Shown piece by piece: positions 1,383-15,107 of a DNA stretch of 24,000 bases. The position numbers were made by a program, and so were the translations under genes. The DNA comes from Carnobacterium sp. GTDB taxonomy: Bacteria; Bacillota; Bacilli; Lactobacillales; Carnobacteriaceae. Positions within the stretch are counted from its first letter, which is position 1, and every line of letters starts with the position of its first letter. The notes below the pieces were generated by a model that searched no databases, was not told where the DNA came from, and saw only the letters and a list, made by a program, of their open reading frames with translations. The stretch covers positions 1-24,000 of the forward strand of contig JAGQHW010000003.1 of assembly GCA_020431645.1 (NCBI GenBank), given 5' to 3'.

Positions 1383-2243
1383 TTATCGCTTACTAAACTT
1401 TACTCTTTTATTTAATAATTTAGCTTGTAGTTTAGTAGCATTTACAAAATTACTCAATGCTTTTCTTTGAATCTCATCTAGTAAGTCATAATCAATGGTT
1501 ATGATTTTCCTTGATAAAAAAGCATACTGTTCATTAATATCAGAACTTGCTTCACTAAGTTCATCTCTGAACAGTATTATTTCCGGAGTTACTCGTTTTA
1601 GATTCTTAATTTCTTTAAGTATGTTATCTATCTTTTTTTTTATTTCTATGGTCATTTTTTCATTCTTTTTTTTAGTACCTTTTCCAATCATATACGCCCC
1701 AGCCCCGCCGACAGCCCAACCTATTGGTCCTGTTAGCCCAACAACTAAAGAACCCAATCCTATTCCACCACCGCCAGCTACTAATGCTCCGCCACCTAGC
1801 CAAGCTAAAGCTGCGTTAGTTGCTGCTGCTCCAGATAACGCACTGATAGCTGTTCCTGTAGAAGCAACACCAAAAGTAGTGGCTGAAGCCATTAAAATAT
1901 TGGCTCCTAATACTCCAACAACTGCTCCCGTGCCCGTAACTGCAGCTGCAGATTTGATTGCCTTTTCATCTATTTTCTTTATCTCTTTTTCTAACGTTTG
2001 TAGTTCAAATGTAAAATCTTTTAAACTTGACTCTGTAGATTCAATAGTGATACTAATTTCATCAGGAGTGTTTCTAAATAAATTATAATAGTTAACACAC
2101 CTTAAAATAGTCTGATACAATTTTTGTTTATTCTCATAAATTTCTTGAGCGATTAAATTAACCTCTTCTACTACTATTTCATACTGTTCAACAGTTTTAT
2201 AATGTAATTTCTCATAAATCACTCGCTCTTCTTTTCCTAACAT
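1383..2243 (-). CDS. Hypothetical membrane protein: N-terminal coiled-coil-like region, ~90-aa Gly/Ala-rich glycine-zipper core, C-terminal Lys/Glu-rich coiled-coil-like region
   Basis: 286-aa ORF with ATG at 2243 and a strong RBS (GGGAGGGG about 9 nt upstream). The core AAAVTGTGAVVGVLGANILMASATTFGVASTGTAISALSGAAATNAALAWLGGGALVAGGGGIGLGSLVVGLTGPIGWAVGGAGAYMIGKG (nt 1680-1955) carries repeated small-xxx-small motifs. I recognised no family. Confidence 0.85.
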   Translation of the reverse strand: MLGKEERVIYEKLHYKTVEQYEIVVEEVNLIAQEIYENKQKLYQTILRCVNYYNLFRNTPDEISITIESTESSLKDFTFELQTLEKEIKKIDEKAIKSAAAVTGTGAVVGVLGANILMASATTFGVASTGTAISALSGAAATNAALAWLGGGALVAGGGGIGLGSLVVGLTGPIGWAVGGAGAYMIGKGTKKKNEKMTIEIKKKIDNILKEIKNLKRVTPEIILFRDELSEASSDINEQYAFLSRKIITIDYDLLDEIQRKALSNFVNATKLQAKLLNKRVKFSKR

Positions 2244-2269: not shown

Positions 2270-2794
2270 TTATGTTCTAAAAAATGAATCACATTCTGCT
2301 ATATCAGTATAATTAAATTCACAATTCTCGATTGAAACAGCTTTTAGTTTAAGGTAATCCGTTAGTCCATCTTCTTTAATATAAGGAGCTTGTATTTTGA
2401 TACCAGTCTTTTGATCATACCACCACTTTGTAAATTCAAAAAAATCAGATAATGTATCTTCTAATTCTAACTTAGTAATCATGTGGTCTTCATGTTTAGC
2501 TTTGTTCCCTTTTCTTCTTAAACGATGCATCGTATCTACGATTGACGAATCTAGCTCCATTCTCTTAGGAATTTCATTGATAGCGCAATACAGTTTATTG
2601 TAATTTTCCTTTTCGAATGCTTCTATCTTAAAAATAAATTGCTTAAGCATTTTTTCTAATAGGCTTATTGCCTCTCTTGTTTGTAAGGAATAGTTATTTG
2701 GGTGTATCTCCATTTCTCTGATACTTTTAAATAAGTCAGGAAATGCCTCTTTTAAAAAGATATAATTTGAATCCACGTTCTCACTACCTTTCAA
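2270..2794 (-). CDS. Standalone DUF4145-like protein (resembles the N-terminal domain of type I restriction HsdR subunits)
   Basis: The track ORF 2270-2827 begins at a TTG placed directly after an in-frame TGA and has no RBS. An internal TTG at 2794 has AGGAG (2800-2804) 5 nt upstream and is the more likely start. Motifs NYIFLKEAFPDL, QTREAISLLEKMLKQFI, MHRLRRKGNKAKHED and LSDFFEFTKWWY follow the pattern NFxFL..WPEL / RRALE..VKW / IR..GN.AVH / LF.F..WL that I recall for DUF4145 and HsdR-N. It sits 26 nt upstream of the next ORF, which is operon-like. Confidence 0.75.
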   Translation of the reverse strand: MKGSENVDSNYIFLKEAFPDLFKSIREMEIHPNNYSLQTREAISLLEKMLKQFIFKIEAFEKENYNKLYCAINEIPKRMELDSSIVDTMHRLRRKGNKAKHEDHMITKLELEDTLSDFFEFTKWWYDQKTGIKIQAPYIKEDGLTDYLKLKAVSIENCEFNYTDIAECDSFFRT

Positions 2795-2845
2795 ATTTAC
2801 TCCTAATAAAGTTAGTATATCATACAATCAGTGGGCTAAATACAT

Positions 2846-2900
2846 AATAAAAAACCTTCGTTGTTCGGAATGGGTCCGACCAACGAAGGTTTTATTTTTT
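2846..2900 (-). terminator. Rho-independent terminator of eno (bidirectional architecture)
   Basis: Stem ccttcgttg(t)tcgga-atggg-tccga(c)caacgaagg at 2855-2889, flanked by an A-run (2849-2854) and a T-run (2890-2900). It lies about 55 nt downstream of the eno stop on the minus strand. Confidence 0.8.
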
Positions 2901-2956
2901 TCTTTTCAGTTTTTAAATAGGAGTTAAATGGGTTAACTTCTATTTACTTGAATCGC

Positions 2957-4252
<1,296 letters not shown>

Positions 4253-10444: not shown

Positions 10445-10521
10445 GCTTTAAGGGTTAAATCAATGAATATTATCCGTATTTTTTTAGCTTGTTTAACTAA
10501 TAAATAAGAATCTCGCTTTTT

Positions 10522-10567
10522 GAACAAAAATAAAACCACTCAGCAGACAGTGTCTAATAAGTGGTTT
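10522..10567 (-). terminator. Rho-independent terminator of the heliorhodopsin-like gene
   Basis: Stem aaaccact (10533-10540) pairs with agtggttt (10560-10567). An inner agaca-g-tgtct hairpin is present. On the minus strand uauuuuuguu follows. Confidence 0.6.
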
Positions 10568-10589
10568 CACTTTTATTTGTTTAGTCTTC

Positions 10590-11375
10590 TTAACCGGGCT
10601 GCATAACTCCTGCAAACGCTAACCATGCCAAGGCAGACTTAGCAACTAAACTTAAGATAATATAGGCACGTTCCCCATAAAGATAGTTTTTCCAAGGTCC
10701 AACTTTTTTATACTGTAAAATCATATTTATTGGAAATAGATTAAAGAAAACAAAATAAGTTCCTGCCAAGGCATATACGAACCATGGAACTTCTGAAGGA
10801 TCAGCATTTCCAAATGCATATAACAAGATAACTATCCATGGAACGAATCCAGCGATTGTCCCAAAAATAAATGACTTCCAATCGGTTTTTTTTCTGTAGT
10901 AAGTCATTTCTTCCATAACTAAACCGAATAAATTCATTGTGGCATTAAGAACAAACATTAAGATAAGTGATCCGATGTCGTAAACACCAAACAACATAGC
11001 AATTAGAATAATCATCAACGATGAACTAATCGCGTATTCGTACCATCTAAAGCGGTTCATGTTTCTTTCCAAATCTTTGTTATATATTTTGTTCCCCCAA
11101 GGCGTCACAATAATGAAGTGTGCTAAGGCAGAAATAAATAAGAATAATGAAACCATTATTCCAAATGGCGCACTAAACAGCTCTTTTTCTTCCGTTAATA
11201 ATCTCATTTGAGTTGTATCGAATGTCAGGAAATAAGACCTGATAGGAATTTTGAAATTGGCAATCTTATCAATAAAAATAGCAAAACCGAGCATGAGGCT
11301 TCCTTGAACTAAGTGCAATAAGCCCATAATAATATTAAATCTTTTTAACGATTTGAAGTCTATTGCTTTGGCCAT
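10590..11375 (-). CDS. Heliorhodopsin-like 7-TM retinal-binding protein
   Basis: 261 aa with 7 hydrophobic segments. The blocks FRWYEYAISSSLMIILIA and GERAYIILSLVAKSALAW match, from memory, the hallmark TM3 and TM7 blocks of heliorhodopsin 48C12 (FRWVEYSLSSS..., GERAYIVLSLVAKSALAW). The putative Schiff-base Lys codon is AAG at 10638-10640. I moved the start to ATG 11375 (AAGGAG 8 nt upstream) because the track's ATG at 11414 has no RBS. Confidence 0.85.
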   Translation of the reverse strand: MAKAIDFKSLKRFNIIMGLLHLVQGSLMLGFAIFIDKIANFKIPIRSYFLTFDTTQMRLLTEEKELFSAPFGIMVSLFLFISALAHFIIVTPWGNKIYNKDLERNMNRFRWYEYAISSSLMIILIAMLFGVYDIGSLILMFVLNATMNLFGLVMEEMTYYRKKTDWKSFIFGTIAGFVPWIVILLYAFGNADPSEVPWFVYALAGTYFVFFNLFPINMILQYKKVGPWKNYLYGERAYIILSLVAKSALAWLAFAGVMQPG

Positions 11376-11518
11376 TAAAATCACTCCTTTTTTTAGTTGA
11401 ACTAGAACTTGCATTTTATTGCTCTAGTTCACTTTATTTATACTTTTTATTGCCTTAATTGTACACTTTTTTCTTACATATAACTATTTATATGTTTCGC
11501 TAGTTAAAATTCTACTAT

Positions 11519-12061
11519 CTATTTATTCGCTGAATTCAACTTGTTTTCAATTAAACTTTGTAATTCGTCGACTGTAATGTGCTCATCAAAAATCTCTTCT
11601 CCGATAAAAACCGATGGAACTAATTCTACATTAGCCCGAACAGCTTCTTCAATGATACCCGCTACTTGTTTTTCATTTGACTGTACTGTTAGGCCACGCT
11701 TCTCCTCAACATACGCTGCAATCTTATCGAGATTGTTCAAATTGCCCCATTCACCTTGTTTATCATAAAAGTACTCTATTTCTCTTAAAGCAGACTCAGG
11801 AGAAGAGTAATCTAGATAACGATGAACGACGTTTCCTTTCCTCAAATGAGGGGTCTCTTTATCGTAATGCTTAATGATTCGTTGTACCTTGCCTTCTTCT
11901 ACATATTTAGCTAAGAGCTCCTTCGAATCATTGTGCCATTTCTTACAAAAAGGGCAACTTACGTTAATAAATTCAATAACTTTAACTGGTGCATTAGGAT
12001 TCCCAATTTTTAATCCATAAATAGTTTCTACTTCTTTTGCTTTTATCTTGCTAATATCCAT
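11519..12061 (-). CDS. DsbA-family thioredoxin-fold protein (CPFC active site)
   Basis: 180 aa counted from ATG 12061 (RBS AAAGGGGA upstream); the track start at 12151 lacks an RBS. The redox motif is VSCPFCKKWH. There is no obvious signal peptide. Confidence 0.7.
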   Translation of the reverse strand: MDISKIKAKEVETIYGLKIGNPNAPVKVIEFINVSCPFCKKWHNDSKELLAKYVEEGKVQRIIKHYDKETPHLRKGNVVHRYLDYSSPESALREIEYFYDKQGEWGNLNNLDKIAAYVEEKRGLTVQSNEKQVAGIIEEAVRANVELVPSVFIGEEIFDEHITVDELQSLIENKLNSANK

Positions 12062-13003: not shown

Positions 13004-13324
13004 ATGGAGACGAGAAAAAATACTAACTCTTACTTTGACGGAGGATTATTTAGTTTTATCGGATGGAATCTTCTAGGATTAACGGTCACTGTATTTACTT
13101 TAGGAATTTGCTATCCTTGGGCATTATGTATGGTTTACGGTTGGAGAATTAATCATACCGTTATAGAAGGAAAAAGGATGAAGTTTATTGGTTCAGCAGT
13201 TGGATTATTTGGGCATTGGATTAAATGGTTCGTCTTATCCATTGTCACTTTTGGTTTCTATAGCTTTTGGGTTTCTATTAAACTAGAAGACTGGAAAGCA
13301 AGAAACACAGTATTTTTAAATTAA
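13004..13324 (+). CDS. Small membrane protein, DUF898/YjgN-like
   Basis: 106 aa, with RBS AAAGGAG 7 nt upstream. It has two repeats of the pattern F.G..F..W.L....T.G.Y.(P/F)W: FDGGLFSFIGWNLLGLTVTVFTLGICYPWA and FIGSAVGLFGHWIKWFVLSIVTFGFYSFWV. The family call was made by eye. Confidence 0.7.
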   Translation: METRKNTNSYFDGGLFSFIGWNLLGLTVTVFTLGICYPWALCMVYGWRINHTVIEGKRMKFIGSAVGLFGHWIKWFVLSIVTFGFYSFWVSIKLEDWKARNTVFLN

Positions 13325-13453: not shown

Positions 13454-13518
13454 ATGTTTTATAAATCACTTTCAATGTCTGCACATACTGCTAAATAAAT
13501 GTTCATTCGTTTTACTAA

Positions 13519-13590
13519 TGCCTCCTGAGGGAATCGAACCCCCATCTCAAGAACCGGAATCTTACGTGCTATCCATTACACCAAGGAGAC
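13519..13590 (-). tRNA. tRNA-Arg (anticodon CCG)
   Basis: Folded by hand as a 72-nt cloverleaf: acceptor GTCTCCT/AGGAGGC, D stem GTGT/GCAC, anticodon stem TAAGA/TCTTG with loop TTCCGGT, T arm GGGGG-TTCGATT-CCCTC, discriminator A. The 3' CCA is not encoded. Confidence 0.9.
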
Positions 13591-13754
13591 AAACTAACCA
13601 TTCCTAACTCATTCATTTTAGCTGATATGCCACAAAAAAACAAGAGTATTAACTAACCTATTCTTTTTCGAACTCTAGGGTTAGACAGAAAATACTCTCA
13701 TTCTTTGTGTTACAATGCTAGTGTACCTATCATTATATCAAAGGAGGCCGCTAC

Positions 13755-15107
13755 ATGAATTTTGAACAATCTTTTTCTCAACAACAAAATCAAATTCAAA
13801 AAATGGCCATGACACACCAACTCCAACAGTCTATTCAGATGTTGCAATATAATCAAGAAGATTTACTGAGTTTTTTAAACCAAAAAGCTTTAGGAAATCC
13901 CTTAATTGAAGTAAGTGTTCCGCAGGAGCGGCCAATTGAAAACTTCCCAACAACCCTTACGTATAATCCAGAAGATGATGAAACGAACTATATGAATCAA
14001 ATTCCAGACACTTACTTGTCTTTATTTGAATATGTTTCTGAACAAATTCATTTAACTATGCGCGATACTCGTTTGAGAGAATTGGTCATATGGTTAAGTG
14101 AATACTTAGATACCAATGGCTATTTAACGATTACACTAGAAGAAGCTGAGCGGTTAACAAAAGCGCAACCACTTCAAATTCTTGATGCACTCGTTTTACT
14201 CCAACAGCTAGAACCAGGTGGCGTTGGGGCTAGAAATTTACAAGAGTGCTTAATGCTTCAAACAGAACGTCATGAAGATGCACCCAATATGGCTTATATT
14301 GTTTTAGAAGAAGAATTTGATCTTCTTACAACTCGCAAGTGGAAAGAAATTACTAGGAAATTAGATATCTCATTAAATGAAATACAATATATTTTTGATT
14401 TCATTCAAACACTAACTCCCTATCCAGGTGCACTATTCAATGGAGAAAAAGAACAATTCATCAAACCAGATTTATTTGTTGAAATAGATTCTAGAGAACT
14501 AAAAGTCATTTCTATTAAGTCTGGATTACCGATTATTACGTTTCAATCCTCTTACTTTGAGGATATGATGCAAGTAAAGGATAAAGATGTTACCCATTTT
14601 ATTAAAGAAAAACAAGCTGAATATGAATGGCTCCAGCGCAGTCTGACACAAAGAGGCGATACGATTTTACGTGTCGGAACAGCTATTGTAAAAAAACAAA
14701 AAGGGTTTTTCATTTTACCTGATCATCCTATTCAACCGTTAACTTTAAAAGATATAGCGACTGAACTTGATGTACATGAGTCAACCGTTAGCCGTTCGAT
14801 TAATGATAAATATTTAGAAACAACTTTCGGGATTTTTGAATTAAAACACTTTTTTACAAATGCTTTAAATGTCCTAGCATCAGAGGAATCAGCCTCTGAA
14901 TCATCTGAATTAGTTTCCACAAATGAAGTTAAAAAGAAATTAACCTATTTTATTGAGTCCGAAAACAAGCAAAAGCCTTTATCTGATCAAAAGTTAGCGG
15001 AGTTATTAGCAAAAGATGGAGTCGAAATATCACGCAGAACCGTTGCTAAGTACCGTGAAGCTCTTTTCATTCCAACCTCTCTCAATCGCAAACGTTTTGA
15101 AGAGTAA
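13755..15107 (+). CDS. rpoN: RNA polymerase sigma-54 factor
   Basis: 450 aa. It has a Gln-rich N-terminus (MNFEQSFSQQQNQIQKMAMT.QLQQSIQMLQ), an HTH (LKDIATELDVHESTVSR) and an RpoN box (ISRRTVAKYREAL). The RBS is AAGGAGG. Confidence 0.95.
   Translation: MNFEQSFSQQQNQIQKMAMTHQLQQSIQMLQYNQEDLLSFLNQKALGNPLIEVSVPQERPIENFPTTLTYNPEDDETNYMNQIPDTYLSLFEYVSEQIHLTMRDTRLRELVIWLSEYLDTNGYLTITLEEAERLTKAQPLQILDALVLLQQLEPGGVGARNLQECLMLQTERHEDAPNMAYIVLEEEFDLLTTRKWKEITRKLDISLNEIQYIFDFIQTLTPYPGALFNGEKEQFIKPDLFVEIDSRELKVISIKSGLPIITFQSSYFEDMMQVKDKDVTHFIKEKQAEYEWLQRSLTQRGDTILRVGTAIVKKQKGFFILPDHPIQPLTLKDIATELDVHESTVSRSINDKYLETTFGIFELKHFFTNALNVLASEESASESSELVSTNEVKKKLTYFIESENKQKPLSDQKLAELLAKDGVEISRRTVAKYREALFIPTSLNRKRFEE

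Follow-up and report, generated by a model that had tools for sequence, protein, structure and literature searches.

An intact, canonical heliorhodopsin gene in a lineage-specific segment beside the glycolytic operon of a Carnobacterium species

Two heliorhodopsins of solved structure are the natural points of reference for a new member of the family: HeR-48C12 (here 48C12), the founding bacterial heliorhodopsin, which comes from an actinobacterial fosmid (PDB 6SU3, 6UH3 and 9LJJ), and TaHeR, from the Thermoplasmatales archaeon SG8-52-1 (PDB 6IS6, 7CLJ and 7U55). Three further members have been linked to particular partner proteins. TfHeR, from Trichococcus flocculiformis, in whose genome no other opsin has been reported, was characterized after expression in Escherichia coli and was found not to pump ions and to bind a class-2 cyclobutane pyrimidine dimer (CPD) photolyase (PMC9769723); AbHeR regulates glutamine synthetase in an actinobacterium (PMC9529153); and another heliorhodopsin modulates an ABC exporter (PMC11109279). 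Here we examine a gene in a 24,000-nucleotide stretch of Carnobacterium sp. DNA (positions 1 to 24,000 of contig JAGQHW010000003.1; hereafter, the window) that an earlier note, made from the sequence alone, had called heliorhodopsin-like. The gene proved to be a genuine, intact, canonical heliorhodopsin gene. We think it likely that its product is a non-pumping light sensor that uses Lys246 and Glu113, responds with the help of exogenous retinal, and acts on a partner encoded elsewhere, and that the gene is inherited as part of a segment of ~1.1 kb.

The gene lies on the minus strand at positions 10590..11375 of the window, stop codon included, as an open reading frame (ORF) encoding 261 amino acids (aa). 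All three sequence blocks quoted in the earlier note (KSLKRFNIIMGLLHLVQ, FRWYEYAISSS and GERAYIILSLVAKSALAW) are found in this ORF, and the Pfam comparison proposed there as a check gave a match to PF18761 that spans the profile from end to end (positions 1-242 of 242; E 1.5e-101; 339.2 bits, against a cut-off of 26.7). The NCBIfam equivalog model NF038020 (HeR) was likewise matched in full (positions 1-244 of 244; 315.5 bits, against a cut-off of 100). The heliorhodopsin domain begins at residue 10 of 261, and the Pfam scan found no second significant domain in the protein. We also considered the domain-fused MORN-HeR and Znf-HeR types (PMC8612252) and rejected them, as the protein has neither N-terminal MORN repeats nor a zinc ribbon. 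In a search of PDB sequences, the best solved matches were TaHeR (6IS6; E 6e-63; ~45% identity) and 48C12 (E 4e-54; ~44% identity), and the colinearity with 48C12 that the earlier note had described from the N terminus onward runs along the whole length of the protein. The profile matches, the alignment of the key residues and the predicted fold, both described below, agree in identifying the protein as a heliorhodopsin.

To place the key residues, the sequences of 48C12 and TaHeR were rebuilt from printed alignments and then re-aligned with the window protein. The lysine of VAKSALAW sits, as had been proposed, at the Schiff-base position: Lys246 (codon AAG, 10638..10640, minus strand), in helix 7, falls in line with K241 in 48C12 and with K238 in TaHeR. 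Similarly, the glutamate of FRWYEYAISSS occupies the counterion position, with Glu113 (codon GAA, 11037..11039, minus strand), in helix 3, aligning with E107 of 48C12 and E108 of TaHeR. Both residues, the predicted retinal Schiff-base lysine and its predicted counterion, are invariant in 36 homologues. The second counterion position (S237 in 48C12) is Ser242 rather than Asp, the arrangement expected of a single-glutamate counterion. Every test that we applied thus supports a heliorhodopsin with a Glu counterion and a Schiff-base Lys.

Kovalev et al. (PMC7049168) listed 17 polar residues that are conserved across heliorhodopsins, and 16 of these are kept in the window protein. They comprise the complete set that forms the polar Schiff-base cavity (H21, H86, N14, Y98, N107, R110, Y114 and E235), the residues E155, Q221, Y231 and W111, which match E149, Q216, Y226 and W105 of 48C12, and S82, E113, S117 and S242. 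The residues of 48C12 that find their match here include, besides K241, E107, S237 and E149, N16, H23, S76, H80, Y92, N101, R104, Y108 and E230. The sole exception is Q213 of 48C12, which is replaced by M218; this change is a frequent variant (PMC7049168). At a pocket position outside the 17-residue list, I142 of 48C12 is replaced by N148. TaHeR has M and N at these two positions as well, along with the same Lys, Glu and His-His set. It differs from the window protein in its archaeal host, in an AB loop that is shorter by six residues and, as described below, at two positions of the fenestration motif.

We built an AlphaFold model of the window protein from 36 homologues (pLDDT 83.6, pTM 0.80). 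The model has seven helices (residues 7-34, 71-99, 108-128, 134-161, 166-188, 198-222 and 231-256) and a beta-hairpin in the AB loop (strands 42-53 and 58-70). When this predicted structure was submitted to Foldseek, all of the top 10 matches were heliorhodopsins (E 1e-17 to 1e-12), with TaHeR (6is6) the best at TM scores of 0.87/0.91 and a root mean square deviation of 2.0 Å and with 48C12 at a TM score of 0.83, whereas type-1 rhodopsins appeared only at E > 1e-3. The modeled fold is closer to that of solved heliorhodopsins than to that of type-1 rhodopsins. Of the Lys and Arg residues in loops, 13 are on the same side as the N terminus and 5 are on the opposite side, the latter all within the AB beta-hairpin loop. 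By the positive-inside rule, this charge count agrees with the inverted topology, in which the N terminus would be cytoplasmic.

A recent preprint (10.1101/2025.11.27.691015) described a fenestration motif consisting, in 48C12 numbering, of Gly at 169, Asn at 207, an aromatic residue at both 162 and 206 and a non-bulky residue at both 166 and 210. The motif is intact in the window protein (F169, T173, G176, F211, N212 and P215); TaHeR has Y164 in place of F169 and A207 in place of P215. Judged by this preprint-based motif, the window protein fits the pattern of fenestrated heliorhodopsins with a carotenoid site, and carotenoid binding is putative.

The earlier note implied that a heliorhodopsin was a novelty in such a chromosome, and this did not hold. 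RefSeq already names the protein heliorhodopsin HeR in four Carnobacterium taxa, and TfHeR, from the same bacterial family, has been characterized (PMC9769723). The RefSeq entries cluster with the window protein at 90% identity and differ from it by 0.8% of amino acids in strain TMP28 (WP_414839680.1), 2.3% in C. iners (WP_085558630.1), 5.0% in C. funditum (WP_034551169.1) and 5.7% in C. jeotgali (WP_407391645.1), and the homologues in Alkalibacterium, Jeotgalibaca, Lacticigenium and Enterococcus rivorum are annotated as heliorhodopsins likewise. Among the papers searched, none links Carnobacterium with heliorhodopsin, and the four that mention both rhodopsin and Carnobacterium do so incidentally, as far as their titles and abstracts reveal; this is a gap in commentary and not in knowledge. 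The gene is therefore of an ordinary, already known kind and had been identified correctly: published work already covers the family, its key residues, the missing retinal pathway and the spread among Gram-positive bacteria, Carnobacteriaceae among them. What we add is the lineage-specific segment with its empty sites, the different location in C. jeotgali, the purifying selection, the conserved leader hairpin, the lack of a conserved partner neighbor and the lack of a recognizable thioredoxin terminator. As a discovery the gene carries little weight, and its value is modest and practical. A small cultivable clade (C. funditum, C. iners, C. jeotgali and TMP28) keeps a strongly constrained, stand-alone heliorhodopsin gene, and close relatives with an empty site offer natural controls for studying the role of a heliorhodopsin in its native host and the source of its chromophore.

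Compared with the chromosome of Carnobacterium sp. TMP28, the locus shows 95% DNA identity and the protein 99% identity. In agreement with the reported restriction of the family to monoderms, the host genus belongs to the Lactobacillales in the Bacillota. The gene order clpP, trx4, heliorhodopsin, cggR, in which trx4 encodes a thioredoxin-like protein, is common to TMP28, C. iners and C. funditum. In another Carnobacterium lineage (loci L098-L100) and in C. alterfunditum (L101), we found clpP, trx4 and cggR with no insert, and the thioredoxin gene stands beside clpP in Carnobacterium genomes with and without a heliorhodopsin gene. Homology to the empty sites (L098, L100 and L101) ends at window position 11545 and restarts at 10461. 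This delimits a lineage-specific segment of ~1.08 kb (10462..11544, not assigned to a strand) that holds the leader, the coding sequence and the terminator and is not present at the same site in the other Carnobacterium genomes. Where the window has ~1.08 kb, L098 has ~200 bp. Inspection of the segment ends by eye revealed only an 8-base inverted match, which is expected by chance in AT-rich DNA.

The copy of the C. jeotgali type (L085-L089) lies at another locus. Its protein is 94% identical to the window protein and it has the same leader, including the hairpin described below, but DNA homology to the window is confined to positions 11491-10587, i.e., to the leader and the coding sequence. 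In L085, the copy (2430-3215) is flanked by a DapB_N/DAP_DH_C gene (411-1439) and by a convergent glyoxalase/Ble-like gene (3263-3685); glyoxalases have been reported as recurrent neighbors of heliorhodopsin genes in Actinobacteria (Bulzu et al., PMC8612252).

Among four Carnobacterium copies of the heliorhodopsin gene, the ratio of nonsynonymous to synonymous divergence (dN/dS) lies at 0.01-0.05, and dS is close to saturation. The dN of the heliorhodopsin gene is as low as that of clpP, tpiA and pgk and lower than that of the neighboring thioredoxin gene, and these substitution rates indicate that the gene is under strong purifying selection. Its dS (0.5-1.0) equals or exceeds the values obtained for the flanking genes when the same genomes are paired. 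A recent horizontal transfer inside the clade was considered and rejected, because the heliorhodopsin dS does not fall below that of clpP, cggR, pgk, tpiA or trx4 in the same pairs. The simplest reading of these comparisons is that the segment was inserted once, in the ancestor of C. funditum, C. iners and TMP28, between the thioredoxin-like gene and the cggR-gap operon, and has since descended vertically under strong constraint. The C. jeotgali copy would then either have moved or have been acquired separately, and the comparisons are compatible with both.

The earlier note described the gene as having its own terminator, an inverted repeat in its leader and hence a monocistronic, separately regulated unit. 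The first two features are real. Beginning 17 bases past the stop codon, a hairpin (10526..10573, minus strand, i.e., 10573-10526 in the direction of transcription) is followed by a U-run (UUUUAUUUUU); its predicted folding energy is -28.4 kcal/mol (z -5.68), and none of 200 shuffled sequences folded as stably, which makes a convincing case, as far as RNA folding goes, for an intrinsic terminator. In the leader, positions 11430-11421 pair with 11408-11399 (-14.4 kcal/mol, z -4.9) to form a stem-loop (11399..11430, minus strand) with a 10-bp stem (GAACUAGAGC / GUUCUAGUUC) and a 12-nucleotide loop. The stem stands ~10 bases 5′ of the ribosome-binding site, a Shine-Dalgarno AGGAG at 11384..11388 (minus strand) that precedes the ATG start codon at 11375 by 8 bases. 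Equivalents of this site are GGGAG in C. jeotgali, AGGGG in C. iners and AGGAG in the other three Carnobacterium leaders.

In an alignment of five Carnobacterium leaders, 94% of the cells in the stem are paired, against 28-50% in slid controls. Three pairs are altered on both sides and several further changes lead to G-U pairs, a pattern more in keeping with an RNA stem than with a DNA operator; coming from five related sequences, this is moderate evidence. No match to a known RNA family was found in Rfam for the leader or the terminator, even at E values up to 1. Beyond the genus, the leaders of L090 and L091, the next-closest homologues, and those of Alkalibacterium and Enterococcus rivorum could not be aligned and showed no such hairpin. 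Some automatic annotations (e.g., L082:2822-3646) call a 274-aa product from an ATG at 11414, inside the hairpin, which would add window positions 11376-11414 to the coding sequence. This upstream frame is not conserved, and it is closed by an in-frame TAA in C. iners, so the comparison indicates that the real product is the 261-aa protein and that the N-terminal extension is an annotation artifact.

Column conservation also picked out a -10-like hexamer, TACAAT (11458..11463, minus strand), which reads TATAAT, TACAAT or TAAAAT in relatives; a consensus promoter scan did not list it. It is a candidate promoter element and may serve the heliorhodopsin gene. In the 143 bases between the thioredoxin and heliorhodopsin genes (11376-11518), we found no intrinsic terminator, so read-through from the thioredoxin gene is plausible and monocistronic transcription is not established, although the -10-like box, the leader hairpin and the terminator all fit a gene with its own regulation. 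The corresponding stretch of the empty site L098 (4609-4781) contains a hairpin that by eye resembles a thioredoxin terminator (AACAGCG...CGCTGTTTTC), and this stretch has been replaced in the window lineage. The heliorhodopsin terminator may serve the thioredoxin gene too.

The leader hairpin is retained at the different locus in C. jeotgali. The conserved mobile unit could be conceived as a self-contained cassette of ~0.9 kb in which the coding sequence is accompanied by its promoter and a structured 5′ leader, with the stem-loop acting as a novel regulatory RNA element that adjusts opsin expression in cis, e.g., to light, retinoid or membrane status. Its retention at two unrelated chromosomal sites and its compensatory and G-U-tolerant changes favor such a cassette, an idea that we nevertheless regard as decidedly unlikely. 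If it were true, cultivable, psychrotolerant Carnobacterium would provide a native host for a knockout test of the long-unresolved physiological role of heliorhodopsin.

For the function of the protein, we favor a light sensor that signals through another protein. Because the published cases act by direct protein contact and because TfHeR, from the same family (Carnobacteriaceae, order Lactobacillales), does not pump, we infer that the window protein is a non-pumping sensor for a partner encoded elsewhere. It would be inserted into the membrane as a seven-helix protein with a cytoplasmic N terminus and would attach all-trans retinal to Lys246, Glu113 being its only counterion. Going by the characterized prokaryotic heliorhodopsins, no ion pumping is expected. 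A slow-cycling sensor of this kind might alter the activity of its partner through the charged cytoplasmic loops, as AbHeR and the ABC-transporter heliorhodopsin, members of the same family, serve as models for an output by direct contact. Those two proteins differ in having their partner genes adjacent or in the same operon, whereas the window gene is flanked by a Thioredoxin_4 gene and cggR, so that the partner of the sensor would be encoded away from it.

Retinal, and possibly a xanthophyll antenna, would most likely come from the environment and enter by the lateral opening between helices 5 and 6. Antarctic lakes and ponds are the source of C. funditum and C. iners, and fermented seafood is that of C. 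jeotgali, habitats in which external carotenoids are plausibly available. The earlier note had seen no carotenoid or retinal genes in the window, and we likewise found none among its ORFs of at least 100 aa. Its question of where the retinal comes from is a fair one, although not a new one, as published work has described the gap as general among heliorhodopsin-only genomes (10.1101/2021.02.01.429150; 10.1101/2021.02.16.431466). The preprint by Bulzu et al. reported a full de novo retinal pathway in only 1 of 381 such genomes, Chazan et al. saw blh together with heliorhodopsin chiefly in cases where another rhodopsin is present, and the lateral opening has been argued to let monoderms recruit external xanthophylls (preprint 10.1101/2025.11.27.691015).

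Several points weigh against this sensor model. The window protein is known here from its sequence and predicted structure alone. Its expected lack of transport is an extrapolation, given that the viral heliorhodopsin V2HeR3 transports protons (PMC9448325), and the step that calls for exogenous retinal depends entirely on the published family-wide statistics. Nor does gene context point to an output. We collected the 80 closest genomic loci and the 120 closest proteins and clustered the four nearest ORFs on each side of the homologous gene in the 80 loci. There was no recurrent neighbor: the top family, a generic ABC ATPase, occurred in 12 of the 80 loci, and the neighborhood is silent on output. 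The next-closest homologues and the C. jeotgali copy stand in unrelated contexts. The second neighbor family, an old-yellow-enzyme type reductase (8 of the 80), most likely recurs only among related Alkalibacterium loci. Judging the top families by sequence reading, we saw no enrichment of photolyase, glutamine synthetase or histidine kinase genes among the 80 loci. The window neighbors accompany the gene only in TMP28 among these loci and, outside that set, also in C. iners and C. funditum.

The most specific rival to the sensor with a distant partner is a photolyase helper like TfHeR, i.e., a light-activated protein that binds CPD photolyase through basic loop residues and lets DNA photorepair extend to green light. 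TfHeR is likewise from Carnobacteriaceae, and among Lactobacillales heliorhodopsins it alone has a function that has been tested (PMC9769723). Charged residues also occupy the same three cytoplasmic loops of the window protein (D101/E103, K162/K163 and K223/K224/K229). In Trichococcus, however, the TfHeR and photolyase genes share an operon, whereas no photolyase was found in the window ORFs of at least 100 aa or among the recurrent neighbor families of the 80 loci, the top ones judged by sequence reading. Trichococcus is moreover absent from both the 80 closest loci and the 120 closest proteins, so TfHeR is not a near relative, and we consider this explanation unlikely. Coupling to the present neighbors, in the form of a light-triggered oxidative-stress module cotranscribed with the DsbA-like thioredoxin or of modulation of the glycolytic regulon, seems to us quite improbable. 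It would be helped by the missing terminator between the thioredoxin and heliorhodopsin genes, by the glyoxalase-like gene that adjoins the C. jeotgali copy and by the report of Bulzu et al. (PMC8612252) that redox proteins, including thioredoxin, are enriched near heliorhodopsin genes, for which they proposed links to the detoxification of glycolysis by-products. Yet the thioredoxin gene is resident at the site with or without the heliorhodopsin gene, the adjacency is gone in C. jeotgali, which has this leader and coding sequence at another site, and the recurrent neighbor families of the 80 loci include no thioredoxin. The cggR operon, for its part, retains its own promoter region, homologous to that of the empty sites.

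Of the remaining explanations, a relic is highly improbable. An opsin that was never pigmented for want of a retinal supply, its gene drifting or serving a light-independent role, would accord with the lack of retinal and carotenoid genes in the window and with hosts that are fermentative lactic acid bacteria, but drift is hard to reconcile with the low dN/dS at near-saturated dS and with a dN comparable to that of the core genes noted above. The residues of the retinal pocket and the Schiff-base cavity are retained apart from known family variants, and a light-independent role would leave the conservation of K246 and E113 unexplained. Least probable of all is proton transport, light-gated or light-driven, of the kind known from V2HeR3. 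In its favor, transport has been demonstrated in one branch of the family (PMC9448325). Against it, the mostly viral subfamily 2, which includes several ion transporters, wholly lacks the fenestration motif (10.1101/2025.11.27.691015) that the window protein has; the closest solved relatives, TaHeR and 48C12, do not transport, and neither does TfHeR (PMC9769723). We therefore retain the non-pumping sensor acting on a partner encoded elsewhere as our preferred reading.

The surroundings of the gene are a typical Bacilli core region. In window order, two unnamed ORFs (1383-2243 and 2270-2827) come first and are followed, likewise on the minus strand, by eno, gpmI, tpiA, pgk, gap and cggR. After the heliorhodopsin gene come the Thioredoxin_4 gene and clpP (both minus), a small DUF898-like ORF (plus), tRNA-Arg (minus) and sigL (plus), and then whiA, yvcK, rapZ, pgcA, trxB, a TPR gene, galU and gpsA (all minus). 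The earlier note had placed the heliorhodopsin gene between the glycolytic operon and clpP. This is right on the cggR side, but clpP does not adjoin it; the intervening Thioredoxin_4 gene (11519..12061, minus strand) encodes a DsbA-like protein of 180 aa with a CPFC motif (Pfam PF13462, E 3.7e-38). Among the window ORFs of at least 100 aa, we found no photolyase, glutamine synthetase, histidine kinase or matching ABC exporter.

The homologue set contained two groups worth recording in their own right. In one, MORN repeats (PF02493) are joined to a heliorhodopsin domain, itself 67-69% identical to the window protein, in proteins of ~390-407 aa (P0080, P0087, P0099-P0102, P0104-P0107, P0109, P0112-P0114 and P0118); such fusions are known from haloalkaliphilic Syntrophomonadaceae (Bulzu et al., PMC8612252). 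The other consists of heliorhodopsin genes, 64-70% identical to that of the window, on contigs of metagenome-assembled genomes that are labeled as diderm although the family has been reported as restricted to monoderms. They carry the labels Muribaculaceae (L060, L072 and L074), Sphaerochaeta sp. UBA6084 (L028, on a 230-kb contig), Spirochaetales (L025, L031 and L065) and, within the Thermotogota, Kosmotogaceae, Thermotogaceae or Thermotogales (L033, L035, L046 and L049). The domains of the neighboring genes gave no taxonomic signal for L072 and L028. Because L060, L072 and L074 have a G+C content of 26-31% and Shine-Dalgarno sites at about the rate seen in Firmicutes, their Muribaculaceae label is probably wrong, to judge by composition. 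One Spirochaetota exception already appears in Bulzu et al. (PMC8612252).

Two further features of the window deserve mention. The ORF at 1383-2243 (minus strand), located 3′ of eno, matches the PADLOC candidate phage-defense family PDC-M09A over its full length (E 2.2e-68), and the adjacent ORF at 2270-2827 (minus strand) has weak matches to DUF4145 and PDC-M16A; both lack a clear Pfam family and are 98-99% identical in TMP28. A lone tRNA-Arg(CCG) gene (13518-13591, minus strand) lies between the DUF898-like ORF (13004-13324, plus strand) and sigL (13755-15107, plus strand).

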